Source: a virus
Lineage: Duplodnaviria > Heunggongvirae > Uroviricota > Caudoviricetes
Direction: 5' to 3' (one strand)
Length of the DNA stretch: 36,639 nt
Virus record (IMG/VR): IMGVR_UViG_2548876956_000006
Shown here: positions 1,377-35,937 of the stretch, piece by piece
Layout: each line of letters starts with the position of its first letter
How positions within the stretch are numbered: the first letter of the stretch is position 1
The notes under the pieces: model-generated
Seen by the model: the letters and a program-made list of their open reading frames with translations, nothing else
Database searches by the model: none
Told to the model about the DNA's origin: nothing
Position numbers and translations under genes: made by a program

Positions 1377-2378
1377 TTACCCTCTATTGTCAAAAGGGTT
1401 TAATTCAACAGCAGCCTCTAAATGACCCGGAGCAAAATGCGCATAACGCATAGTCATTTTTATATCGCTATGCCCCAGTATTTTTTGCAACACAAGAATA
1501 TTTCCGCCCCGCATCATAAAATGACTAGCAAACGTGTGACGTAGCACATGAGTTAATTGCCCATCAAGGAGCTCTATCTTCGCTCTCTTAATTGCAGCGT
1601 CAAAAGCCTCATAACATGGTGAAAATAGCGCTCCTCGTTTTTTAGGAAGCATAGCCTGCAATTGAGGTGAAATCGGTACAGTGCGGTTCTTCTTTCCTTT
1701 AGTTTTAACAAATGTGATTCGACCGGGCAGTACTTGAGATTGCTTTAATCCTTCTGCTTCACTCCACCGAGCACCAGTCGCAAGCCCAATACGGACAACA
1801 ACCCCCAAATCTTTATTCCGTGACTCATCACACGCAATCAAAAGGCGTTCAATCTCATCTACATACAGAAACGCCAGCTCCTTTTCTTCCTCACGAAACT
1901 TGCGAATTCCAGTCAGGGGGTTTTCACCAGACCACTCCCCAAGGCGCTTCAGTTCGGCAAAAACAGCATGTAGATATGACTGCTCGCGATTAACGGTTGC
2001 TTCACTAAGTTTTTTCTTCCCCTTGGGATTCCATTCTCCTGATAGCCTTCTTTCCCGATAAGTAGCAAACATATTTTTGTCAAACTGAGAAGCAAATGGA
2101 TCTCCCAGCCTAGAACAAATCGCCTCAAGTTTGACTTTGCGCTCTGCACCAGAGGACAAGGTTTTGCCGTACATCTCAAACCAACGAGCAATCAACTCAG
2201 AAAGACGAGGACCAGAACCATCTTGAAACTCGTCTCCAACTCTACTATTCATTAAACGGCGCTCATAAGAGAGCGCCTCACTTTTTGTCGCAAACTGTTT
2301 ACGAATGCGTTTTCCCGATGCTCCGTAGGGATAACATTCGCAAAGCCATTTACCTGATGGAATCTTACGAACCGACAT
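1377..2378 (-). CDS. int: Tyrosine integrase (P2 Int family)
   Basis: 333 aa with the C-terminal catalytic region HVLRHTFASHF...GHSDIKMTMRYAH (R/H-x-x-R...Y signature). Adjacent to the att fragment. Confidence 0.9.
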   Translation of the reverse strand: MSVRKIPSGKWLCECYPYGASGKRIRKQFATKSEALSYERRLMNSRVGDEFQDGSGPRLSELIARWFEMYGKTLSSGAERKVKLEAICSRLGDPFASQFDKNMFATYRERRLSGEWNPKGKKKLSEATVNREQSYLHAVFAELKRLGEWSGENPLTGIRKFREEEKELAFLYVDEIERLLIACDESRNKDLGVVVRIGLATGARWSEAEGLKQSQVLPGRITFVKTKGKKNRTVPISPQLQAMLPKKRGALFSPCYEAFDAAIKRAKIELLDGQLTHVLRHTFASHFMMRGGNILVLQKILGHSDIKMTMRYAHFAPGHLEAAVELNPFDNRG

Positions 2379-2383
2379 TTTTG

Positions 2384-2731
2384 TTACTTATCACATAAAT
2401 CAAATGCAGCCTTAGTGACGTCCCCCAGATTCTTTTTTAACCCTGGGGCGGCATCATTATCTAGCCAAAATGGATTATTGTTATCTAACGGTAACGCACC
2501 AAATGTTTTACCTTTTATTCGAGCCAAACCTGTAAGCGCATATAACTTATTATCGTCAAAATTCATCACATAAGGATTACCATCAAGACACTGCAATTGA
2601 ACCTCATCTGTATTAAATGGCCATACTCCATTGAAACTCTCACGTTCAATAGTTTTAAAAGGCATTGCGACGGCGGAAAAAGAAAACATAGATAAAAAAG
2701 CAACTAATAGTTGAACCTTTTTTACTTTCAT
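2384..2731 (-). CDS. Small secreted/periplasmic protein (signal peptide, two Cys), unknown function; cargo gene
   Basis: N-terminus MKVKKVQLLVAFLSMFSFSAVA is a signal peptide; gene is AT-rich; sits 6 nt upstream of int on the same strand; SD gagg is 9 nt before the ATG. Confidence 0.6.
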   Translation of the reverse strand: MKVKKVQLLVAFLSMFSFSAVAMPFKTIERESFNGVWPFNTDEVQLQCLDGNPYVMNFDDNKLYALTGLARIKGKTFGALPLDNNNPFWLDNDAAPGLKKNLGDVTKAAFDLCDK

Positions 2732-2760
2732 GTCATTGCCTCAATTTAGCTCAAGTAAGA

Positions 2761-3411
2761 TTACAAATTAAAAAACATCCTAGAAATGACTCCGCCTACC
2801 AAAACCCCTACGCAGATAAAGAATATTATTTCTTTTGGATAAAATCGGATTAATTCTGAAGCACGAAGGCGGACTTCTGGTAAGGTCGAATTCTCTGTGT
2901 GGCTTGATACCGATTGTTGCTCCAACCACGACAATGCAGACTGTAACTGAGAACGAGTAAGATCGTTTAAACGTCCTGTACCGAAATTGATATGGCAATA
3001 CCGCAGAAGTTTTTGTCGAAGTCCACAGTCTTCACTGTTACGTAGTAATAAACTTACAAGAGTCTTACAGGCATCATGATCTTTACATCGCTCAAGCATT
3101 GTATGCAGAAAACTCTCCGCTGTTTTATATTGATTTATTGTCATATCATCAATACCAGCTACACCAATCTCCGCATGTACTTTTTGCCAAATAATAAACG
3201 CTTCAGTATTGCTAGCTTCTGCAATAGCAGCAACCAAGCTATTTAGCTCCTTACGCTGTGCCTTAAGCAAAGGGCGAGCGTCATCATCATTATTCGAAGG
3301 GATTGCGATATTGACGGTATGAGAACCATCATATCGCTCTATCTGAATATTCTTTTCGTGAAAATCACGCCCAGCAACGCGATTGTTTGAACCGTTTGAG
3401 TTGACGGCCAT
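2761..3411 (-). CDS. Tail-anchored membrane protein (C-terminal TM helix), unknown function; cargo gene in the repressor-int operon
   Basis: 216 aa; strong SD GGAGGTGAC before the ATG; C-terminal hydrophobic segment IIFFICVGVLVGGVISRMFF; no family recognised. Confidence 0.6.
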   Translation of the reverse strand: MAVNSNGSNNRVAGRDFHEKNIQIERYDGSHTVNIAIPSNNDDDARPLLKAQRKELNSLVAAIAEASNTEAFIIWQKVHAEIGVAGIDDMTINQYKTAESFLHTMLERCKDHDACKTLVSLLLRNSEDCGLRQKLLRYCHINFGTGRLNDLTRSQLQSALSWLEQQSVSSHTENSTLPEVRLRASELIRFYPKEIIFFICVGVLVGGVISRMFFNL

Positions 3412-3426
3412 GTCACCTCCCTACTA

Positions 3427-3831
3427 TCACCTACCCTTAGTTTCGTTATAGTCACGACCAGCGATACGGTTATTACCACCAGAAATATTTAACTCACGCC
3501 CTGATGGCTGAGTTTCCTTTTCACTGCCCGCACCTTTTAAAGCCCCGATCACCGCGTTTTTTACATCTAACGAAGCTGCTCGAAAGCGAGTAATCAACTC
3601 CTGCTCATCATCGTTATAAGTTTCAGGTGAGTGAATTCCCAACACAACATACTGAACATCAAGGCCAAAACGAGACAGCGCTGCCAAATACGCAGCATCA
3701 GGAAAGCTATCTCCTTTCTCATATCTAAGCTGAGTTAGCTTTTTGACTCCACCAATGTCGCTCATAGCAACTTGACTAAGCCCCAATCTTTCCCTTTCCT
3801 CACGCAACCGCTGACCAATATCATTTTTCAT
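3427..3831 (-). CDS. HTH (XRE/Cro-CI type) transcriptional repressor, probable prophage immunity repressor
   Basis: N-terminal HTH (IGQRLREERERLGLSQVAMSDIGGVKKLTQLRYEKG); divergent from the early operon; first gene of the minus-strand operon ending in int. Confidence 0.7.
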   Translation of the reverse strand: MKNDIGQRLREERERLGLSQVAMSDIGGVKKLTQLRYEKGDSFPDAAYLAALSRFGLDVQYVVLGIHSPETYNDDEQELITRFRAASLDVKNAVIGALKGAGSEKETQPSGRELNISGGNNRIAGRDYNETKGR

Positions 3832-5972: not shown

Positions 5973-6362
5973 ATGATTGACGCTCATGACTTCACAAGAT
6001 GGGTGCGCACACAGGACACCCGTCTGGCTCCCGTTCTTCAGGGATTATTTGATCTCTACATCCGTGGTCGTGACAACAGAGCACGCACTACAAAACCGGA
6101 GAATGCGGACACCCTTTATTTCACAGTAGACGACTGCTACCGCGTGGACTTAACACCACACGGGCTGGCGTTGCGCTGCCTGACACCGCATGGCGAATCA
6201 CTGCTGGCGTATTACGACTCCCCGGCCTCCGTATTTGCGGCAATGCTGGCGCATCACACTGCTGGCGGGTGTGCCTCGCTGAGTGAATACACCGCTGAAT
6301 TTAACCGCCTTTCCACCATCTTCTCGCAGGAGTGGCAGCGCGTGACGGGATACCAGCCATGA
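5973..6362 (+). CDS. Early-region protein immediately upstream of A (position of P2 B/orf83-like genes)
   Basis: 129-aa ORF whose stop overlaps the A start (ATGA). Confidence 0.5.
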   Translation: MIDAHDFTRWVRTQDTRLAPVLQGLFDLYIRGRDNRARTTKPENADTLYFTVDDCYRVDLTPHGLALRCLTPHGESLLAYYDSPASVFAAMLAHHTAGGCASLSEYTAEFNRLSTIFSQEWQRVTGYQP

Positions 6363-9199
6363 GTGAGTTTACATGGAGCTGGAATGAACCACGGCCAGCC
6401 ATTGAGCCGGACAGATTTACGGAGCGCAGGCAGGAAACTGAAACCGACCTGCAACGCGCCATCCGTTACTACCTTGAGGCGGACAAAAAGGCCCGGAAAG
6501 AACAGGAAGCGAAGGAGGAAGCCTTTTTCGCACAATCCACCGTGGGTAAAAAACTCATGGCATCCCTTGAGGAAGCCGGACAGCGTGAAAAGCTGGCACA
6601 AAGCATCATCAGCAAGCGTCAGGCAACAGAACAAGACCCGGTGGCCCGTGCTTTTGCCACACTGAAGGTGCTTCCCGTTTATCTGCGTGAACCTCTGAGC
6701 CGCCACCTCTCTTTCCTGCACAAAAAACAGGAATCCGATCGTCAGAAAGGCAAAAAGAGCTGGCAGGCTGAACGCTACGCGCGCGGAACCCTGCGCAAAA
6801 TATTCGAACGTCTGGACCGCACCGACAGCCGTTGGCTGACACCGGGTTATCGGTCCCTTGCCGGACGTGAACGCCTGGACGATTTGCTTTACCTGCCGCA
6901 GCTCAACAAACACCAGATACAGACGCTGGCCACCATGACGGCGGCGATGTTCAGCAGCACCTTCGAAAAACTCTGCGATGGTTTTGGCGCGACTGATGGC
7001 GAGCTGACCATGGATGTAACGCTGAAGGCGTATCAGATGCTGGCCCGCATGGCGTTACACTTGCACGCCATGCCTCCGCATTATGACGCACTGACAACAG
7101 ACAAAGACCGGAGGAACGAACCGGACACAGAACTGCTGCCGGGCGCAATCCTTCGCCTGACCTGTGCAGAATGGTGGAAACGCAAACTGTGGCTGTTACG
7201 TTGCGAGTGGAGAGAAGAACAACTCCGCGCCGCCTGTCTGGTTTCCAGAAAAACATCGCCCTATCTGAGTCAGGACGCGTTAAGCGAGTTTCGCGCACAG
7301 CGCGAGAAAACACGCGATTTCCTGAAAAGTTTCATGCTGGAAAATGAAGACGGGTTCACGATTGATCTCGAGACGGTGTATTACGCGGGAGTAAGTAACC
7401 CGGTTCACCGTAAGGCAGAAATGATGGCCACCATGAAGGGGCTGGAACTTCTGGCCGAAGCCCGTGGCGACAGAGCGGTGTTTCTGACTGTCACCTGCCC
7501 GTCAAAATACCACGCTACAACAGAGAACGGTCATCCGAACCCCAAATGGAACGGGGCCACCATGCGCGACTCCAGCGATTACCTGGTTAACACGTTTTTT
7601 GCGGCGGTCCGCAAAAAACTGAACCGCGACGGTCTGCGCTGGTATGGCATCCGCACGGTGGAGCCTCACCATGACGGCACTGTGCACTGGCATATGATGG
7701 TCTTTGCACATCCGGACGAGATTGAAACCATCGTGTCCCACGTCTGCGATATTGCCATTCAGGAAGACCGCCACGAGCTGGGCGATGACATAACTCCGCG
7801 TTTTAAGGCGGAGTACGTAGACGGCTCAAAAGGCACACCAACCAGCTACATCGCCACCTACATCGGAAAGAACCTGGACAGCCGCGCCGTGGATGGCATC
7901 GACCCGAAAACGGGCAAGCCACGCGTTGACCACGAAACCGGAAAATCAATGGCCGAGAGCGTGGAACGCGCCATCGGCTGGGCGCGCCTTCACCGGGTCC
8001 GCCAGTTCCAGTTCTTTGGTATCCCCTCCCGTCAGGTGTGGCGTGAACTGCGCCGCCTTGCCAGCCAGATGGCACGCAACCCGGAAGGCCCGCAACGGCT
8101 GAAGGATGACGCAATGGATGCGGTACTCGCTGCCGCTGATGCCGGGTGTTTTGCCACCTACATTGAAAAACAGGGTGGTGTGCTTGTTCCACGCAAAGAC
8201 TACCTGATTCGCACCGCCTACGACCTCGCAGATGATCTGAACGATTACGGTGAGCAGAGTGTACAGATTTACGGGATCTGGTCGCCGCTCATCGGGGAGT
8301 CTTCCCGCGTATGCACGCATCCGGATAACTGGAAGCTGGTAAGACGCAAACCAGAACAGGAAGGTAGCGCCCACGAAAATGGTTTTGACCTTCAGGGCGG
8401 CCCTGCCGCCCCTTGGACTCGTGGCAATAACTGTCCCCGTGAACAGGAAACAGACAACAACGGGACAGAACAGCCGGAAGAACGGCCAGCACCGTGGCCG
8501 CAGCTCCCTGACAGCGTTGAAGTGAACGAATGGATGCATTCACTGAAACGGCACGAACGCCGGGCGCTGATGCGTTCGCTTCGTGACAAACAGGCAAAAA
8601 ACAGCAGCGATGAAATGCAGAACTGGACACAGAGCCGCAAACAGCCACAGCCTTTGCCTGATAACCACGAGTTACTCGCTAAAGAATGGCGGGAGTCTGC
8701 TGAATCTCTCGGCCTGCATATTGGTGAACAGCAGATGCAGCACCTGTTACGGGGCGGCAGTCTGTACGTTGACGGCAGCATCATTGCACCGCAGGGATTT
8801 GAAATTGTACGCAAACCGGATACCCGCCCGGACAGCCGAATCACGCAGCTCTGGCAACGCCTGAGCCGTAATCACGGCGTAAGCAGCACGGAGATCCGCC
8901 ATAACCCGGTCGCCAGCTATCTGGAACAGCTGGGGGCATCAGACCCTGAAGCCGCCGCACGCCTGGCATCCACACTTCAGCAGGACCAGAACACCATGAA
9001 AACCCCCGTTACCGTGCTTTCTGACATGCTGCGCGCCATCCGTGACGCAGAGCACGCCCAGAGAATCAGTGAAACCACTGAACGCGCCCGCCGCAAAGCA
9101 GACCTGCTGCGGGGTAGCCTGACCAGTGGAAACAAAAAACAGACAGAAACGGGACTCACAAATCCCGTAAATGAGCAAAAAACGTGCCGCGATATATGA
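6359..9199 (+). CDS. A: Replication initiation protein, P2 gpA-like rolling-circle endonuclease
   Basis: Large ORF in the position of P2 A; contains an HxH-type motif (VHWHMMVFAHPDE) typical of Rep-family nickases. Start taken at the ATG overlapping the upstream stop; the ORF track starts at 6332. Confidence 0.8.
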   Translation: MSEFTWSWNEPRPAIEPDRFTERRQETETDLQRAIRYYLEADKKARKEQEAKEEAFFAQSTVGKKLMASLEEAGQREKLAQSIISKRQATEQDPVARAFATLKVLPVYLREPLSRHLSFLHKKQESDRQKGKKSWQAERYARGTLRKIFERLDRTDSRWLTPGYRSLAGRERLDDLLYLPQLNKHQIQTLATMTAAMFSSTFEKLCDGFGATDGELTMDVTLKAYQMLARMALHLHAMPPHYDALTTDKDRRNEPDTELLPGAILRLTCAEWWKRKLWLLRCEWREEQLRAACLVSRKTSPYLSQDALSEFRAQREKTRDFLKSFMLENEDGFTIDLETVYYAGVSNPVHRKAEMMATMKGLELLAEARGDRAVFLTVTCPSKYHATTENGHPNPKWNGATMRDSSDYLVNTFFAAVRKKLNRDGLRWYGIRTVEPHHDGTVHWHMMVFAHPDEIETIVSHVCDIAIQEDRHELGDDITPRFKAEYVDGSKGTPTSYIATYIGKNLDSRAVDGIDPKTGKPRVDHETGKSMAESVERAIGWARLHRVRQFQFFGIPSRQVWRELRRLASQMARNPEGPQRLKDDAMDAVLAAADAGCFATYIEKQGGVLVPRKDYLIRTAYDLADDLNDYGEQSVQIYGIWSPLIGESSRVCTHPDNWKLVRRKPEQEGSAHENGFDLQGGPAAPWTRGNNCPREQETDNNGTEQPEERPAPWPQLPDSVEVNEWMHSLKRHERRALMRSLRDKQAKNSSDEMQNWTQSRKQPQPLPDNHELLAKEWRESAESLGLHIGEQQMQHLLRGGSLYVDGSIIAPQGFEIVRKPDTRPDSRITQLWQRLSRNHGVSSTEIRHNPVASYLEQLGASDPEAAARLASTLQQDQNTMKTPVTVLSDMLRAIRDAEHAQRISETTERARRKADLLRGSLTSGNKKQTETGLTNPVNEQKTCRDI

Positions 9200-9244
9200 A
9201 GCGCGCACAAAACAGGCAAAAGAGGGATTTCAGAATCCCGTAAA
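9151..9244. repeat. Two 21-bp repeats with internal dyad (GGGAyTyNNrAATCCCGTAAA) 73 bp apart; candidate parC-like centromere/operator or A-associated origin element
   Basis: gggactcacaaatcccgtaaa (9151-9171) and gggatttcagaatcccgtaaa (9224-9244), 16/21 identical, each containing GGGA...TCCC. They flank the A stop and lie just upstream of parM. Confidence 0.3.
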
Positions 9245-9275
9245 CGGTTAATTAATCAACATAAGGAAAATCGAC

Positions 9276-10235
9276 ATGAAAATTTGTATCGACGACGGCT
9301 CCACCAACATCAAGCTGGCATGGACTGAGAACGGCGAACGCCGCAACGCCATCAGCCCGAACAGCTTCAAGTCGGAATGGTCTGCGCCGTTCGGTGGCAC
9401 GCAGCCCGCGAACTACATGCTTGATGGCGTGCGCTATGGTTTTGATCCGGTCAGTGATCGCTTTGTCCAGACGACCGACACGCAATACCAGTACAGCGAT
9501 GTGAATGTCATTGCCATTCATCACGCGCTGGTCAAATCAGGCATCACGCCACAGGAGGTGGATATGGTTGTCACCCTGCCACTGAGCGAGTATTTCGACA
9601 CAAACGCACAGCCGGACATGGCCAACATCAACCGCAAAAAAGCAAACGTTATGCGCCCGGTGGAATACCAGAACGGCGAAGCATTCACTATCCGTAATGT
9701 ACGGGTTATGCCTGAATCCATTCCGGCTGGCTTTAAAGCACTGGCTGACATGAGTCCGTTTGAATCCCTGCTGATTGTGGATTTAGGTGGAACCACGCTG
9801 GATGTGGCAAAGGTTCAGGGACAACTGGCAGGTATCAGCCAGGTGTTTTGCGATCCACACGTAGGCGTTTCCCTGATGGCCGATGCAGTACTGTCGGTGA
9901 TGGCCACTAACGGTATGCGTACCAGTCACCACATCGCCAATACCATTATCGAACATCGCCATGATGAAGCCTGGCTGCGCCAGCACATCCACAATGACGC
10001 GCATTACGCCAGCCTGATGGCGGTTATTCGTGAAAAGGAAGAAACACTGAAACAACGCGTGATCCGCGCGCTGGCGGGTTTTTCGGGTTACGGGCGGGTG
10101 ATGGTTGTCGGTGGCGGGGCGGAGATTGTGGCACCCGCTATCCGCGAAGCCTGCGGAGTTAATGCGACTTTCATCGCGGACGGGGTGCCACAGTTTGCTC
10201 TGGTTAATGGGCTGTACGCAATGGACAAGGAGTAA
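9276..10235 (+). CDS. parM: ParM/StbA-family actin-like plasmid-segregation ATPase
   Basis: 319 aa; N-terminus MKICIDDGSTNIKLAW plus PNSFK, QYSDVNV, VMPESIPAG, DLGGTTLDV, FSGY, VVGGGAE and LVNGLY closely parallel plasmid R1 ParM as I recall it. Confidence 0.85.
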   Translation: MKICIDDGSTNIKLAWTENGERRNAISPNSFKSEWSAPFGGTQPANYMLDGVRYGFDPVSDRFVQTTDTQYQYSDVNVIAIHHALVKSGITPQEVDMVVTLPLSEYFDTNAQPDMANINRKKANVMRPVEYQNGEAFTIRNVRVMPESIPAGFKALADMSPFESLLIVDLGGTTLDVAKVQGQLAGISQVFCDPHVGVSLMADAVLSVMATNGMRTSHHIANTIIEHRHDEAWLRQHIHNDAHYASLMAVIREKEETLKQRVIRALAGFSGYGRVMVVGGGAEIVAPAIREACGVNATFIADGVPQFALVNGLYAMDKE

Positions 10236-10239
10236 ACCA

Positions 10240-10551
10240 ATGACGACACCAACCAGACGAATAAGTTTCTATCTGAAGCCCGCCGCCGTCAAGAACGAAG
10301 GCGAAGCATGCGCCTGGCTGGACAGCCTTACACCAGAAGCCCGTAAAAACGGCCAACGCGTGGCTTTTCTGGCTGGGCTGGCGCTTCTGAAAATGAATCC
10401 GGCAGAGGCTTACCGACTGGCAGCATGGGCTGACGATGAGGCGTTATCAGTGACACAAACCAGGACAGAACGCCCCCTGTCACAGCCAGTACCAACCGCA
10501 CAGATAACCAGTCAGATGGCCGGAAATATCAGGGCGTTATTTCCTGAATAA
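10240..10551 (+). CDS. parR: ParR-like small DNA-binding partner of ParM
   Basis: 103 aa directly after parM; RRISFYLKP...AWLDSLTPEARKNGQRVAFLAGLALLK...IRALFPE parallels R1 ParR (RRTIAFKLNP...DSIPQGERSR...AALTAGLAL...LRSLFPKE). The ORF track extends the frame upstream into parM; the ATG at 10240 is the plausible start. Confidence 0.6.
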   Translation: MTTPTRRISFYLKPAAVKNEGEACAWLDSLTPEARKNGQRVAFLAGLALLKMNPAEAYRLAAWADDEALSVTQTRTERPLSQPVPTAQITSQMAGNIRALFPE

Positions 10552-10614
10552 CACAACGTCAGGGCGAGTTCGCCCTGATCTCCATCTCAGAACATAAACA
10601 AGAAGAGCGACTTA

Positions 10615-10998
10615 ATGAGCAAAATCAACTATCAGGCATTACGTGAACGTTATTCACCTGCACCAGTACCAAAATGCCCTATTTGCGGCGAAGAAATGTC
10701 AATTCAGCGAATATCTGGAGCACTGGTTGTTTATGGCTGCTCCGGTTATGGTGATGAAGGAGATTTCAAAATTGGTCGAACTCTTGCCGACGAACATTAT
10801 GAAAAATCACGCGTAACAGTGTTGGATGTCGGGGATCCTGAAGTATTGGCGCTACTTGATTGGCTGGAAACCAAAGACAACCGAATCGCTGAACTGGAAA
10901 AAATCGCCACTGACTATGCACTTAAATTCCAGAAAGCACAGGACGCATTAAAGTACGCCGCTTTGCTGCATAGCAGGACAGTGCAGCTACAAGACTAA
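10615..10998 (+). CDS. Hypothetical protein with CxxC and C-terminal coiled-coil-like region
   Basis: 127 aa; CPICGEE...YGCSGYG; no family recognised. Confidence 0.45.
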   Translation: MSKINYQALRERYSPAPVPKCPICGEEMSIQRISGALVVYGCSGYGDEGDFKIGRTLADEHYEKSRVTVLDVGDPEVLALLDWLETKDNRIAELEKIATDYALKFQKAQDALKYAALLHSRTVQLQD

Positions 10999-11088
10999 CT
11001 TAAAGCGGAAGATTAATACATGGTGAGTCGGGGTAATTTGTTTTTATCCCGACAAATAAACAAAAAAGTGGACTATCTCTGTAGTATC

Positions 11089-11619
11089 TTATTCAGCATC
11101 GTCTCGTGCAGTCTGTGCATACGTCACAACAACGCCCAATGCATTAGTTTTCTTTTCAACATAGATAATATTGTCATATTCATAGTTACCATACGGATAG
11201 CAAATAAGAATATTTTTATGCAGATCGGGATCATCAACAAACGCTCCGGAACAGCTTCTTGAACTACCGGATGTATACTCATACGGTGCAACATATGATG
11301 ATGTTACTCCTGGTAAAAAATAAGTCACCATCATAAGAGGGATAATCAGGAATATCCCTGTAAGAATGCAAGAGCCAGCATAAACCTTCAGGTATTCCGA
11401 CAGTCCTTTCCAGCCACTTTGCTTCACTACCCCCCTCTTCACCAGAAACAAGGAGAAGAAAAAGGACATACCCATACTACACAAGATGTAATAATTGGAT
11501 ATACGCGAATTAAGATATGTAATCCTGTAGATATCTGCCCTCCACCAGTAAAAGAGGAAAATAATCCCTAGCACTGAAACAGTCATGCAAATCAAATAAG
11601 GATATGAATCTTTCTTCAT
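11089..11619 (-). CDS. Multi-pass membrane protein, AT-rich cargo in the A-cos (P2 tin/old-position) hotspot
   Basis: 176 aa, low-GC, opposite strand to the flanking operon; about three hydrophobic helices (VSVLGIIFLFYWW, FFFSLFLV, CILTGIFLIIPLMMVTYFL) followed by a soluble C-terminal segment. Confidence 0.55.
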   Translation of the reverse strand: MKKDSYPYLICMTVSVLGIIFLFYWWRADIYRITYLNSRISNYYILCSMGMSFFFSLFLVKRGVVKQSGWKGLSEYLKVYAGSCILTGIFLIIPLMMVTYFLPGVTSSYVAPYEYTSGSSRSCSGAFVDDPDLHKNILICYPYGNYEYDNIIYVEKKTNALGVVVTYAQTARDDAE

Positions 11620-12150
11620 GTCTTGCGCTCATTAAAATTTCACTGCTACGAACAAATTTACCATCCGTTTTTTGCGCAGAAAACAGCACGATGCACACTG
11701 CACGATAGTGCACAAATTTGCACAATTTTTTTGAACGACTTTTTACCCTTCCGGCCCGCATGGCGGCTGGATCCGTCAAGGATCCGTGCGTGCACAAAAA
11801 AACGCGTTTTTTCTGCGCGCAGGTGACGGGGGAACAGCCCGCGTTTCAGGGGGTAAATAGCATTCCCTGAACGATGTCGCAGAGACACAACAGAATGGCT
11901 GTATTTCTCACGCTGAGCGTGAAAAATACGTGAGGGATTCTGATTTGATGGGGTGAAAGGTAAGGCCGTCAAAATCGCACTGAGGCGGCGAAGAACATGC
12001 AGTCAACGCGGTGGGATTGCGTAAGAGTCTGACCGCCGATGATGGCAATAAGCAGAAAAGCGTCGTGAAATTATCTGATTGATACAGGAGCTGGAGAGCC
12101 GGGGCATAAATTTTTTATGCCCCGCCGAAGCAGCAGACAAGCGAAGCGCG

Positions 12151-13197
12151 TCAGGATGTGGGCTGGGTATCTAACAGTGCGTAAGGGTTAAAGCGGATCA
12201 CCTCTTCGCCAAGCCAGTCATTGATGTGCTTCATGGCCTCCATGACGGGCATCAGCTCGTTAATTGCGTAAACCCGCGCGGCCTTCTCCACATCACCAAA
12301 CGCACTTTTTTCACCCGGCATCGCCCCCATCAGTTGCGGCGGAACGCGGTGCGCAGCCAGCACATCATCACGGGATGCCGCCTTAACATTCATGAACTCA
12401 TCCTTTGCGGTGATCTGCTGGAACGGCAAAATTTGCACCCCCTCTTTGCCCCCGTTGGGCGCATGAATGAGCACGTTTTTAAACGCACCGCCACCACGTG
12501 CACCCTGTAGCGTTTCTTTCAGGGAGTCCATGCTTTCGCGGTTTACCTGCGCTGCACCGATGTAGATGATGCACCCGGCGTGGGATCCGTTGTCGTAATA
12601 CAGTTTTCTGAACATGTCCGCCGAATGAGACAGGCTGGCCGAGAGTAATGCGCCGAGATATTCCGGCATGCCGTAGATTTCCTGGTTAATGTCAGGATTC
12701 ATCAGGTGGCACACTTTGCCAGGGCGAAACTGGAACGCATCCTTGCCATCCTGCACATACCACCATGATTCAAGATCGCTACCGCGTCGCATGTATTTCG
12801 CCAGGGCGTGCCGTAATTTAAGCGGTTCGCCGAGCATATTGCTTCGAAGCTCAAGGAATGCGTTACCGAACACAAACCAGTCCAGCGCCAGCGCCGAGAA
12901 ATCCTGCCGGGAAAGCAGCGGGTGCGGGATGTAGCAACCGAGTAATACATTGCGCTTAAAGTAAAGCGCAGACTGATGCCAGGACGTTTGCCGGGCAGCT
13001 CTTGCCAGACCGTACCAGTCCACCGGGGTTTCATACCACCGCCCGTTATCAGCACAGTACATATTGTCCAGCAAGTCATGCCCGGTCAGGCGATAAGGAC
13101 CATCAAATGTGAATGCACTGAGCGACGATTCTTTCCTGAGCGCATCAGCGAGATCAATGCGTGAACTCATGCGCACTTTTTTATTTTTTCTGCTCAT
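12151..13197 (-). CDS. Q: Portal (capsid portal vertex) protein, P2 gpQ-like
   Basis: 348 aa in the conserved Q-P leftward pair; length and position match P2 Q; shares one base with the P start/stop. Confidence 0.85.
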   Translation of the reverse strand: MSRKNKKVRMSSRIDLADALRKESSLSAFTFDGPYRLTGHDLLDNMYCADNGRWYETPVDWYGLARAARQTSWHQSALYFKRNVLLGCYIPHPLLSRQDFSALALDWFVFGNAFLELRSNMLGEPLKLRHALAKYMRRGSDLESWWYVQDGKDAFQFRPGKVCHLMNPDINQEIYGMPEYLGALLSASLSHSADMFRKLYYDNGSHAGCIIYIGAAQVNRESMDSLKETLQGARGGGAFKNVLIHAPNGGKEGVQILPFQQITAKDEFMNVKAASRDDVLAAHRVPPQLMGAMPGEKSAFGDVEKAARVYAINELMPVMEAMKHINDWLGEEVIRFNPYALLDTQPTS

Positions 13198-14948
13198 CAG
13201 AACTCCATAACCGTGAAACGCTCGTTTTCTCCTTCGCCGCCAATCGGTTCGTTAATGACAGCAAGCATGGTTGCCCACGCAAGGTCGCCGTGGCTGATCC
13301 CCCTCGCGCGGTCCGTTTCGTAAGTGATAAAGCCGCCCGGTGTTTTCACCTTACGCACGGCGTTAAAGGCCGCGACCAGCTCGCGTTCGGCGCGATCGTA
13401 TTCCCACCGCCCGGCACGCATTATTTGCAGCATTTTCAGTACCAGCGACCGTTTTGATGACAGCGTGAAGGTGTACGGAATAGCAGCAGGGAAAAACCGT
13501 TTCACTATCTGATAAACAGCCTCCCCGTTCCCGCCCGTCACATCAATGCCGATGTGTTCCACGTTGTAGCGACACGTGAACTCTTCAATGACTCTGGCCT
13601 GTTCTTCAAACTCCAGCCCCTGAACGCGTCGCGTCTCCACCGTTCGAAAACGGCCACCAGGAACAGCCGGAGGAACCACCACGGACACAGCGCCGCTGTC
13701 GCCGTTGCCACTGCTGCCGTTTGCGTCATACCCAATCCATACCAGACGATTCCCCATCGGGCGGGGAGCAAAAGGTTTCCAGTCTTTCCAGTCGTCGTAT
13801 CCGTCAACGCCACAGCCAATCAGGATATTCAGGTTAAATGCCGATTCCCCTTCGCGGACAAACTCACACATATAGAGATTGAGGAACTCGTCTTCGGTGT
13901 TTTCATCACGAATTTCATCAATATCGGTGTGTTTCCAGCCGTGATTAACCACATCTTCCAGCGTGACAATTTGCCGCCACGTCCGGTCAGGGCAGATAAG
14001 CCCGTTATGCAGCGTTTTCCAGTCCACAGAAAAACGCTGGCGTTTATGCGAGGCCTTTTTCTCGTTCCAGCGGTCGCCGTTCCAGTAGGCGTATGCCTCG
14101 TGCGTTTCGGTGGATGGCGTGGAGAAGTAGGTGCGCCGCAGTCCGCTGAGGGTTGCCATAGCGCCAGCCACCTTGCGCAGTTCAGCAAAGCGACTGACCC
14201 AGAAAAATTCATCAAAATAAAAATTGCCCGTATAGGACTGTGCCGACGCAGCAGAAGTGCCGAGAAAATGCAGCTCTGCGCCGTTGGAGAGGATGATTTT
14301 ATCGCCCCCTTTCAGCTCCACATCAACTTCAGCCGCGGCCTTCTGAATAATGCTTTTAAACTGGAACGCCTGACGACGCGACGCAGACAAAAAAATCTGG
14401 TTACGCTGGTAAGGTTGCGCCACATCGTCACGCAGCGCCATCAGCAGTGCTTCCTGTGCAAAATACCAGGTCGCCCCAATCTGTCGGGATTTCAGGATCA
14501 TCCTGTTACGTATCCCGGCTTCCCTGCAAAGGGTCAGGGAGTCAAACCAGCTTCGCTGATGCCACTCCAGCCTGCTGATGATTTTTTCCCGCAGTGCGGC
14601 AATCTGTTCCGGCGTGAAATGATTTTTGAGTTTTTTCGCCCGGCCTTTCTTTCCTGCGGCCATCACATCCGGCTGGCCATCATGCAGCTTTTTAAGCTGC
14701 CGTGTCAGCAGGTCTATTTCCTTAAAGTCACCGCCTGTTTTATTCTGTTTTTCAGTAAGCTGGATGAGGCGCGCATCGATGGACTGCGTGACACGCTGCA
14801 CGGGTGGCGTTTCATCCCACTGGTCGCGTTTTTTCCACGCATAAATCGTGTTCGGGTTTATTCCCATCAGACGTGATATTTCTGCGGGCGGATAACCCTG
14901 CCAGTAAAGTTGCCGCGCACGCTGGCGCACAAAAGCGTCCTGAATCAT
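13197..14948 (-). CDS. P: Terminase large (ATPase) subunit, P2 gpP-like
   Basis: 583 aa, divergent from the capsid operon; conserved P2 synteny. Confidence 0.85.
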   Translation of the reverse strand: MIQDAFVRQRARQLYWQGYPPAEISRLMGINPNTIYAWKKRDQWDETPPVQRVTQSIDARLIQLTEKQNKTGGDFKEIDLLTRQLKKLHDGQPDVMAAGKKGRAKKLKNHFTPEQIAALREKIISRLEWHQRSWFDSLTLCREAGIRNRMILKSRQIGATWYFAQEALLMALRDDVAQPYQRNQIFLSASRRQAFQFKSIIQKAAAEVDVELKGGDKIILSNGAELHFLGTSAASAQSYTGNFYFDEFFWVSRFAELRKVAGAMATLSGLRRTYFSTPSTETHEAYAYWNGDRWNEKKASHKRQRFSVDWKTLHNGLICPDRTWRQIVTLEDVVNHGWKHTDIDEIRDENTEDEFLNLYMCEFVREGESAFNLNILIGCGVDGYDDWKDWKPFAPRPMGNRLVWIGYDANGSSGNGDSGAVSVVVPPAVPGGRFRTVETRRVQGLEFEEQARVIEEFTCRYNVEHIGIDVTGGNGEAVYQIVKRFFPAAIPYTFTLSSKRSLVLKMLQIMRAGRWEYDRAERELVAAFNAVRKVKTPGGFITYETDRARGISHGDLAWATMLAVINEPIGGEGENERFTVMEF

Positions 14949-34498: not shown

Positions 34499-35890
34499 TT
34501 ACGCTTTTTTATCAATATTTTTTTTGAGATCACTCATATGGTATGACCACTTAATCAGACTATCTGGATATTGCTGATCAAAAATAATCCGTGTTTCGTA
34601 ACCATTTCCAATAAAAACACTCTGTCCATCAACACTAGAAACTACCCCCTTCCCATTGATGGAAAGCATACTCATAGGATTAATCTTCGGAGATGGAAAA
34701 TCCAATAACTCATAAATCCCGGGGTATTTTTTATTTGCTCTTTCTACGAAACGACGATGATCGAAACACAGCACAACAATTAGATTGCCATTAATGATAT
34801 CCAGAAGCAATTTATCAGGTAGGTTCAAACTAAAAAATGGACGTGATAAAGCATCTGAAAAGCTATCAAGAATATTAAACACTCTCCCCGATATTCTAGA
34901 TACCTCCATCCATCCATTAAAACCGCAAAAACCCATATTAGAATTAATATATGCCCCAAGGAATAAACAATCATTAATGTTAGTAATCGCCCAAGTTTTA
35001 CCGTTATATATCTCATACCAAAGCTCAATAATCTTATCTGTATAAAAATCGGGACAAAAATCTCTGTCATGAATTGTTACTTGAGACTGAAAAAAGTTAT
35101 CAAATCCCTTACCAGTCTCAATGACATCTATCACATTTTGAGCTCTTTTAAGTTGACGCTTAGCTCTGTCATAGTGTTTCAAGTCATTTTTATCAAGGTC
35201 TTTTCTATAAATCTCATCAAAATGAAGACATTTACTTTGCACTGAGAACATAGCCGCCTTTGAAAACTCTATATTTTTCTTACCACTTTTTATTTCAATT
35301 AAAGTTATGCCTTGCTGAGGTATTAACGCAAGTAAATCACCAGTATGTACAAACGTAGTAATATCAGTGATAACAGCTATAGCCATCGGATCAGCATTGA
35401 TTTCATCTGCTACCACCATTGAATCATGTATATTAAATATTGTCAGATTGTCAGTATTTCTATTTATAGGTAAACGTCTTATAAACGAGTGTTCATTGCG
35501 GAATATCGCCCATACAATTGAATCAATACACCTACGTAAAATCCTAATTTCTAGTCTAGTCCTTTCAATATTGCGTATACACTTCTTCTTTGTTTCATAG
35601 TCCTTTTTTGAATGGGCACAATTCTTTTCTAACTCCAGATCCTTGATTTGAGAAAGCCTGATAATGAGTTCATCAGCTATGATCCTTTGCGCCCGCTTCC
35701 ATCCACTTAACAGGTGTTTGAAGTTTTCGATGGAATCAAGCTCCCTTTGCTGAGCTCCCACATTTTCCCCTTGCCGTATCAGCATCATTAACGTCTTGAT
35801 GAGTTCATTGAACTCAGAAGGAAGATGTTCCCATATATTTATGAACGGCCTATACTTTGCCCGCATTTTATCATTGTTATTTTTTGCCAT
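34499..35890 (-). CDS. Uncharacterised ~465-aa protein, AT-rich cargo between D and ogr; possible nuclease-like (PD-(D/E)xK-type) core
   Basis: Long ORF with ~33% GC on the strand opposite to D and ogr; no family recognised; segment TGDLLALIPQQGITLIEIKSGKK fits a D...E-x-K pattern. Start ambiguous (GTG at 35914 or ATG at 35890). Confidence 0.55.
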   Translation of the reverse strand: MAKNNNDKMRAKYRPFINIWEHLPSEFNELIKTLMMLIRQGENVGAQQRELDSIENFKHLLSGWKRAQRIIADELIIRLSQIKDLELEKNCAHSKKDYETKKKCIRNIERTRLEIRILRRCIDSIVWAIFRNEHSFIRRLPINRNTDNLTIFNIHDSMVVADEINADPMAIAVITDITTFVHTGDLLALIPQQGITLIEIKSGKKNIEFSKAAMFSVQSKCLHFDEIYRKDLDKNDLKHYDRAKRQLKRAQNVIDVIETGKGFDNFFQSQVTIHDRDFCPDFYTDKIIELWYEIYNGKTWAITNINDCLFLGAYINSNMGFCGFNGWMEVSRISGRVFNILDSFSDALSRPFFSLNLPDKLLLDIINGNLIVVLCFDHRRFVERANKKYPGIYELLDFPSPKINPMSMLSINGKGVVSSVDGQSVFIGNGYETRIIFDQQYPDSLIKWSYHMSDLKKNIDKKA

Positions 35891-35937
35891 CTTCAATTGA
35901 TAATCTCCTCTCACAATATTGTCATCACTAACAAATT

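Follow-up and report, generated by a model that had tools for sequence, protein, structure and literature searches.

The stretch of DNA analysed here, called the window throughout, is the whole 36,639 nt of IMG/VR record IMGVR_UViG_2548876956_000006. It represents a P2-like prophage integrated in an E. coli chromosome, and its type is that of phage P88 (genus Xuanwuvirus, Peduoviridae). Our subject is a pair of genes, parM and parR, which lies directly behind the replication gene A of this prophage and is preceded by two short dyad repeats, an arrangement reminiscent of the actin-type (type II) partition systems of plasmids. The features of the locus are the following.

6332-9199, plus strand: replication gene A, a P2-type GPA rolling-circle initiator (Pfam Phage_GPA, E = 1.7e-129)
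9133-9171, no strand assigned: left copy of a 39-nt repeat with dyad 1, within the last codons of A; candidate ParR site (first half of a putative parC)
9206-9244, no strand assigned: right copy of the 39-nt repeat with dyad 2, intergenic; candidate ParR site (second half of a putative parC, or an operator)
9251-9259, plus strand: ATTAATCAA block, between dyad 2 and the ribosome-binding site AAGGAAA (9263-9269)
9276-10235, plus strand: parM, actin-like segregation ATPase of 319 amino acids (aa), with StbA_N and ParM C-terminal domains
10240-10551, plus strand: parR, predicted centromere-binding adaptor of 103 aa (Pfam Plasmid_stab_B, PF10784)
10559-10578, plus strand: GC-rich hairpin TCAGGGCG-AGTT-CGCCCTGA, directly 3′ of parR

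A rightward early operon spans from about 3900 to the end of gene A, its final replication gene. The 3′ end of A overlaps dyad 1, and a gap of 76 nt separates the A stop codon from the start of parM. The original prediction, made from the letters of the sequence, had recognized a ParM homologue and a ParR-like gene directly after A; searches with profile hidden Markov models and alignment to known structures confirm that both are full-length members of the R1 family. ParM matches StbA_N (E = 3.9e-82) and the ParM C-terminal domain (E = 1.3e-68), belongs to phrog_691 ('partition protein') and aligns end to end with R1 ParM structures (1mwk, E = 1.6e-92, residues 2-316) at roughly 50% identity. 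The nucleotide-binding and catalytic motifs that characterize the actin-fold ATPase of a type II partition system are intact, with invariant residues at phosphate-1 (D6 D7 G8 S9 T10, DDGST), E147, D169-T174 (D169-LGGTT) and G279-G281 (GGG). The protein is predicted to form dynamic filaments.

The ATG of parR lies 4 nt past the parM stop codon, and parR is translationally coupled to parM. A longer open reading frame (ORF) of 148 codons starting with TTG (10105-10551) was considered for parR and ruled out, since the ATG at 10240 agrees with the Pfam domain, with the relatives and with the RefSeq annotation; the end at 10551 in the original prediction is correct. ParR matches PF10784 over residues 6-76 (E = 2.2e-24) and also phrog_2515, and at the sequence level it has the make-up of the small downstream adaptor of type II systems. 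A conserved N-terminal domain of the ribbon-helix-helix type (RRISFYLKP ... QRxAFLAGLAL) is followed by a hypervariable linker and a conserved C-terminal tail, NI[RQ]xLFPE (NIRALFPE in the window), in which N96, I97, F101 and P102 are invariant in 20 alleles. In the form [KR]xN[AI]xxLFP the tail does not vary among alleles, and it can be aligned with the tails of plasmid ParRs and the C terminus of R1 ParR. The C-terminal ParM-binding tail of ParR has been described as conserved (review, PMC5016525), and the tail of the phage protein is likewise predicted to be its ParM-binding end. A PDB sequence search with ParR gave no match.

Apart from this, parR falls into several divergent allele classes (~52-97% identity), and the parM genes and dyads that accompany them are nearly identical, for example at loci L003 and L012. 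The stretch concerned is 10290-10520 (codons ~18-95), and DNA homology with the 705R2-type allele breaks off at ~10294. Among the classes strong divergence is confined to the linker, and the N-terminal domain and the NIxxLFPE tail are kept. Such classes could stem from recombination with the adjacent variable region, or from selection against mixed ParR complexes of co-resident prophages, of which a genome can hold up to three copies.

Both genes are under purifying selection. The ratio of nonsynonymous to synonymous substitution rates (dN/dS) is 0.046 for parM (mean over 53 alleles) and 0.23 for parR (mean over the 33 alleles of the main class). Roughly 95% of copies are intact: parM has its full 319 aa in 165 IMG/VR prophage loci against ~8 with truncations or frameshifts (~173 complete loci), and parR has 103 or 104 aa in 156 such loci against 8 of odd length. 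Pseudogenisation in close relatives, which would have spoken against a working module, is therefore not what we see. It might be argued from the ~8 damaged parM ORFs, and from phage 503458, which matches in four pieces, that parMR is a decaying relic of plasmid-phage recombination without present function. However, the strength of purifying selection, the invariance of the catalytic motifs and the retention of the genes at the same position across genera, down to 54% identity, effectively refute this idea, to which we give almost no credence.

The two 21-bp repeats lie exactly where the original prediction had placed them, with GGGACTCACAAATCCCGTAAA at 9151-9171 and GGGATTTCAGAATCCCGTAAA at 9224-9244, and both are short palindromes. 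With up to three mismatches allowed, these are the sole two matches to their shared pattern in the 36.6-kb window (0.16 expected; 0 of 100 shuffles gave two), and the pair is not a product of chance. They form the cores of a 39-nt direct repeat (9133-9171 and 9206-9244) whose copies are 74% identical at a spacing of 73. Dyad 1 extends to the palindrome ACGGGAcT-CACA-AaTCCCGT (9149-9168) around a GGG-N10-CCC core at 9151-9166. Dyad 2 reads GGGATT-TCAG-AATCCC (9224-9239), is followed by GTAAA and lies 52 nt ahead of the parM ATG; its left arm is slightly degenerate in the window (GAGGGATT against the common ACGGGATT). Across 78 ParM-selected E. coli-type IMG/VR loci, variation falls in the 4-nt spacers and at one arm position, and GGGAtT and AATCC are constant. 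A reading by eye of each 39-nt block as four R1-like iterons of 11 bp with phased A-tracts was dropped, as only the GGG-N10-CCC dyads are kept across genera.

Comparison between lineages gives the dyads their weight. Exactly two GGG-N10-CCC dyads occur within the 200 bp before parM in E. coli/Salmonella, in Plesiomonas and in Hafnia alike, spaced by 73 bp in the window, 72 in Plesiomonas and 73 in Hafnia, and lying 125-131 nt and 52-59 nt from the parM ATG. The sequence around them is otherwise unalignable among the three lineages, and the Plesiomonas and Hafnia ParMs are 62-63% identical to that of the window. Shuffling each of the three upstream regions 20,000 times never produced such a pair, and a single site arose in 1-3% of shuffles, for a pattern that was defined after inspecting the three sequences. 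In Hafnia an ORF of 167 aa intervenes between A and parM, and the dyad pair still adjoins parM at an unchanged distance from the ATG. (This ORF was tested as a homologue of the C-terminal extension of E. coli A and proved not to be homologous.) In Enterobacter parM is separated from A by two genes, and the element directly upstream of parM is a long inverted repeat.

This inverted repeat belongs to a second type of element, present in the Serratia and Enterobacter phages (L008, L009 and L015) in the form GGGAAC..GAAATAGAAAAATG-N26-CATTTTTCTATTTC. It is situated ~40-140 nt upstream of parM with arms of 14-20 nt that are ~26-28 nt apart, and its fold, as RNA or DNA, is stable (z = -3.3 and -3.7). 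Probably it is the ParR site of that sub-lineage. The N-terminal motif of ParR tracks the type of site, TRR[IV]SFY accompanying GGG-N10-CCC and NRKISFY the long inverted repeat, and such co-variation is expected if ParR reads these sites. The predicted binding of ParR to the two dyads is well supported by this comparison. The dyads are the best candidate for a ParR-binding site, be it as a parC-like centromere or merely as an operator, which were the two roles suggested for them at the outset. The Serratia upstream region also has a direct repeat, ATTTCATGACC, in two copies.

A different view would be that the repeats are no centromere but elements of A or of the origin, or else RNA hairpins for processing or attenuation between A and parM; ParR would then bind at another place or not at all. 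The origin of P2 lies within A, for which reason the original prediction had entertained an origin-associated role as well, and dyad 1 lies within the A reading frame. Each dyad can form a hairpin, a terminator scan flags both on the minus strand, and the 146-nt dyad region of E. coli can fold as a stable RNA, better than its shuffles (z = -4.24). Yet the upstream repeats stay with parM when genes intervene, as the Hafnia dyads and the Enterobacter inverted repeat demonstrate, and a role for A or the origin is for this reason disfavoured. The equivalent regions of Plesiomonas (z = -1.46) and Hafnia (z = +0.05) lack such a stable fold, which makes a conserved RNA structure unlikely, whereas the positions of the GGG-N10-CCC dyads are conserved. 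There is no convergent minus-strand gene that would need termination at this place, and the co-variation of the ParR N-terminal motif with the repeat type would be hard to accommodate. We hold this view to be unlikely.

How parMR is expressed bears directly on when it could act. A consensus scan of 8800-12200 detected no sigma-70 promoter, and a terminator scan between A and parM detected no terminator on the plus strand. The consensus scan is strict and also missed the obvious parM promoter of the plasmid-type locus L010; hence a purpose-written promoter scorer was applied. With it, the best match upstream of the phage parM genes reached 7-8 of 12 (7 in the window), whereas 22 of the 24 plasmid or integrative and conjugative element (ICE) relatives scored at least 9 and some reached 11. 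The ATTAATCAA block, common to E. coli, Plesiomonas and Hafnia, is a possible weak -10-like element. A ParR-autoregulated par promoter in or next to parC was not found computationally; a weak or activated promoter may still serve the genes. Since parM lacks a consensus promoter and follows A on the same strand, behind a short gap, parMR is most likely made only when the early operon is on. It would then form the distal end of the early replication operon, co-transcribed with A, and be silent under repressor control in the lysogen.

The module is widespread. A 1.5-kb segment comprising it matches 14 phage records with 96-98% identity, among them P88, P884B11, C. rodentium phiSM, 520873 and 503458. 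Of 5426 complete E. coli genomes, 1308 (~24%) have it with 90-99% identity. Among 50,697 phage records, an R1-type ParM is confined to the 14 P88-like records and the P1-like phage-plasmid D6, whose ParM is 47.8% identical to that of the window; this is consistent with the earlier statement that P2 itself lacks a partition system. The order GPA-ParM-ParR-[variable genes]-portal-terminase recurs in prophages of at least seven genera (E. coli, E. albertii, Salmonella, Citrobacter, Plesiomonas, Hafnia, Serratia and Enterobacter). In the P2-like prophages of Plesiomonas, Hafnia, Serratia and Enterobacter this position is taken by ParM homologues of 54-63% identity, and all homologues at or below 52% belong to plasmid or ICE contexts. 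When 137 ParMs are arranged in a neighbour-joining tree, the ten from phage contexts mark out a clade of 25, none of whose members comes from a plasmid or ICE context; the tree is without bootstrap support and only indicative. A peptide-pattern scan of genome contigs, with narrow patterns, yielded 27 loci. Two enterobacterial ParM loci turned up in unexpected hosts: L013, in an assembly labelled as the Firmicute Vagococcus sp. WN89Y, has P88-type phage genes 91-100% identical and a ParM 98% identical, and L034, in a Lachnospiraceae metagenome-assembled genome, has a plasmid-type ParM (51% identity) and no phage genes. Contamination or mis-binning is the most likely explanation for both.

The region between parR and the portal gene occupies the position of the P2 tin/old accessory locus between A and Q, a known hotspot for defence genes. 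This raises the question of whether parMR itself is a moron or weapon that acts in the lysogen on other elements, by plasmid incompatibility, superinfection interference or anti-phage defence. Its location, the variability of the genes downstream of it and the divergent ParR allele classes (52-97% identity) on nearly identical parM backgrounds would all suit such a role. But it is the cargo after parMR that varies between relatives while parMR next to A is constant: set against the 1442 E. coli genomes with this type of A (~1384 after subtraction of 58 low-identity matches), the 1308 with parMR amount to about 91-95%. E. albertii NBRC 107761 (L012) has the same A-parMR block (GPA 88%, ParM 99%) joined to an unrelated head module, its portal and terminase being merely 30-36% identical (portal 30%), from which it follows that parMR moves with the replication genes. 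PADLOC found no matches in the 10600-12150 cargo or in parMR, and parMR shows neither the variable presence nor the defence-family match of a hotspot defence gene. The locus has the layout of a cis-acting partition system, with a candidate ParR site ahead of parM and parR, and the upstream site is unlike the TTATCTC-type iterons of plasmids, which makes cross-reaction with known plasmids unlikely. On balance, a weapon of this kind is very improbable.

A partition module in a prophage immediately suggests that the element may live as a plasmid. The strongest form of this proposal holds that P88-like phages have a dual lifestyle and can survive as low-copy plasmids over many generations, maintained by ParMRC, a possibility raised by Pfeifer et al. 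(2021). In its favour, a complete partition module is present and under selection, and four small stand-alone records exist, deposited as replicons or contigs of their own in bacterial genome projects, one circular (NZ_CP148288.1, 34.5 kb) and three linear (CP025923.1, CP025874.1 and NZ_CP049283.1). The circular 'plasmid', pZ1323PEC0009-2, is a whole P88-like phage. However, a sister strain has an integrated phage that is identical to it throughout the 25 kb compared, and spontaneous induction in the sequenced culture can yield free contigs. In complete E. coli genomes 1454 of 1456 module copies are chromosomal, and an integrase is encoded by every member examined for one (the window, L001, L002 and the Plesiomonas prophage L005). 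The rolling-circle initiator A is the sole replication function found: a scan of the early-region ORFs, not extended to every small ORF, gave the P2-type GPA only and neither a plasmid Rep family nor a theta-type replicon. Nor was a par promoter of the plasmid type found. Neither extrachromosomal maintenance in lysogens nor an added plasmid-type replicon is thus apparent. A stable phage-plasmid lifestyle of P88-like prophages is not supported and would be at most a minority state, and we rate the dual lifestyle as distinctly unlikely, somewhat below the view that the repeats are no centromere.

We consider it probable that parM, parR and the dyads constitute a genuine, selectively maintained type II (ParM/ParR/parC-like) module in the core replication block of P88-like and related P2-like phages, and that it partitions or positions transient phage circles. 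The original prediction had offered an extrachromosomal stage, or positioning of the genome by ParMR, as explanations for the module; a transient extrachromosomal role is indeed its most likely function, and the part that finds no support is the phage-plasmid lifestyle, given the chromosomal location of the copies, the integrase and the lack of a detectable par promoter. In the integrated, quiescent state the proteins would not be produced. After infection or prophage excision, the early operon would yield A together with ParMR. Rolling-circle replication by the P2 A protein yields circular monomers, and its homologue here would replicate the circular phage DNA in the same mode. ParR dimers would bind the two GGG-N10-CCC dyads, which straddle the end of A at a distance of 73 bp (~seven helical turns), and the C-terminal tails of ParR would capture growing ParM-ATP filaments that push the parC-bearing circles apart. 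The benefit might be that both daughter cells, or the sites of replication or packaging, obtain a copy of the few circles available before integration or packaging or during the lysis-lysogeny decision. Rescue after abortive excision and the spatial organisation of early replication are other possible benefits.

Several points weigh against this interpretation. The parC of R1 has ten repeats (two groups of five, 11 bp each) and that of pSK41 eight. Compared with the tandem-repeat arrays of parC in R1 and pSK41 (PMC5016525), two dyads are far fewer sites, no iteron array was seen around the two sites whose position is kept in the three lineages, and an operator-only role is possible. The stable RNA fold of the E. 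coli dyad region, mentioned above, belongs here as well. An AlphaFold (AF2) monomer model of ParR had a mean confidence (pLDDT) of 56, too poor for a fold search. The missing consensus promoter is a weak computational argument, as a non-consensus or activator-dependent promoter could act in lysogens. There is no obvious need for partition in a lytic phage with many genome copies, and no functional study of this module was found in the searchable literature.

A bolder variant of the transient role deserves mention. P88-like phages could run a regulated and heritable episomal 'carrier' phase, in which rolling-circle products are partitioned for several generations before integration or lysis by a ParMRC system that has two dyads, no promoter of its own and is driven by the early operon. 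We think this improbable, to about the same degree as we doubt a non-centromeric function of the repeats. If true, about a quarter of E. coli strains would host a facultative phage-plasmid, and two ParR sites would suffice for an actin-driven centromere.

The closest plasmid counterpart is the ParMRC (StbA/StbB) system of R1/R100. The likeness extends to full-length alignment of ParM with all nucleotide-binding motifs, to the PF10784 family of ParR with its N-terminal domain, linker and tail, and to the order parC-parM-parR. In R1 the promoter lies between two clusters of tandem repeats (PMC5016525). The plasmid and ICE relatives follow this layout, with numerous TTATCTC-type iterons to either side of a near-consensus promoter. 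The phage regions lack both features, and the window has two dyads of 16-20 bp placed 73 bp apart. The hosts differ as well, R1 being a low-copy plasmid and the window element an integrating phage. Phage P88 (NC_026014, gp17-gp18) and other Xuanwuvirus members have the same module at 96-98% DNA identity, and the window holds another allele of it with no essential difference. Phage D6, the only other holder of an R1-type ParM among the phage records, has its StbA-type partition system on a 91-kb plasmid prophage, where partition is needed in the lysogenic state, in contrast to the integrated element of the window.

Two systems from normally chromosomal elements offer closer functional parallels. 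The srpMRC module of SXT/R391 ICEs is also an actin-type partition module; it stabilises the excised ICE, whose replication is of the rolling-circle (relaxase) type, its expression is limited to the activated element, and its small centromere consists of four 13-bp repeats (Carraro et al. 2015, PMC4489591). SrpM is a distant relative of R1 ParM, and no ParR domain can be recognised in SrpR, whereas the phage proteins are close R1 relatives; the function of srpMRC in the ICE was shown experimentally, and the phage module is known here from its sequence. The AlpC/AlpA/alpS system of the Corynebacterium prophage CGP3 likewise combines, in an integrated prophage, an actin-like filament former with a DNA-binding adaptor whose binding sites are repeats upstream of the operon. 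AlpAC is induced early after prophage induction and is needed for the phage circles to replicate efficiently and reach their normal copy number (Donovan et al. 2015, PMC4446434). AlpC is of an unrelated actin-like subfamily, its adaptor gene comes first, and it stems from a cryptic prophage of a Gram-positive host, whereas the P88-type proteins are orthologous to plasmid ParM and ParR.

The remainder of the element follows the P2 plan. The features outside the replication block to which we refer are these.

1377-2378, minus strand: integrase
3427-3831, minus strand: helix-turn-helix repressor, facing the rightward early operon
10615-10998, plus strand: Ead/Ea22-like protein, variable cargo
11089-11619, minus strand: predicted membrane protein of 176 aa (phrog_1416)
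12151-14948, minus strand: portal and terminase genes, followed by P2-type head and tail genes

The left 1.3 kb of the window is E. coli chromosomal DNA (Hok/Gef, tRNA-Leu region). ARAGORN found no tRNA in the window, and relatives annotate a tRNA-Leu gene at the left junction; a comparison of the window ends for att repeats gave nothing useful, with one 14-mer only. The A protein is of the long form (946-955 aa), in which the GPA domain is limited to residues 194-518. Its C-terminal 435 aa match phrog_91 ('nicking at origin of replication') and phrog_6857, and this part is partly common to the A protein of Plesiomonas (61% identity over 114 aa, divergent beyond). RefSeq labels A of the relatives 'replication endonuclease'. 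The hairpin at 10559-10578 lies where the conserved module gives way to the variable cargo. It was flagged by the terminator scan on the minus strand, and with no U-tract on the plus strand it is no obvious intrinsic terminator; in P88 and other class-1 relatives the stem is kept and the loop differs (CATC instead of AGTT).

The variable cargo extends from 10600 to 12150. Besides the Ead/Ea22-like and membrane protein genes, both annotated as pseudogenes in the closest relative, L001, it has ~500 bp of low-GC (42%) DNA without a convincing ORF. Two further cargo genes lie on the minus strand between integrase and repressor (2384-3411, GC ~40%), one for a DUF2511 protein (2384-2731) and one for a 216-aa protein without Pfam or PADLOC match (2761-3411); L001 lacks them at that position. 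At the right end of the prophage, adjoining ogr, a 471-aa ORF (34499-35914, minus strand, 35-40% GC), also without Pfam or PADLOC match, could be a second accessory or defence locus.

The presence of the module, and the idea of a phage-plasmid, are already known and not new. RefSeq labels the genes 'plasmid segregation protein ParM' and 'plasmid partitioning/stability family protein', and PHROGs lists families 691 and 2515 as 'partition protein'. Magaziner et al. (2019) listed the phiSM gene as a putative fitness factor (PMC6456863), and the phage-plasmid survey of Pfeifer et al. (2021) discussed the module as a hint of episomal and integrative states; the P88 paper makes no mention of the parM and parR genes (PMC5285337). 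What is added here is the lineage-wide conservation of the module next to A, the minimal, promoter-less two-dyad site that co-varies with ParR, and population-genetic evidence for function.

With the module in ~24% of complete E. coli genomes, this predicted actin-like machine ranks among the commonest prophage functions in the species. If parMR does partition or position transient circles, the precedents of SXT/R391 and CGP3 would extend to widespread temperate phages of enterobacteria, and the two dyads would provide a very small natural centromere for studying how ParR engages ParM.

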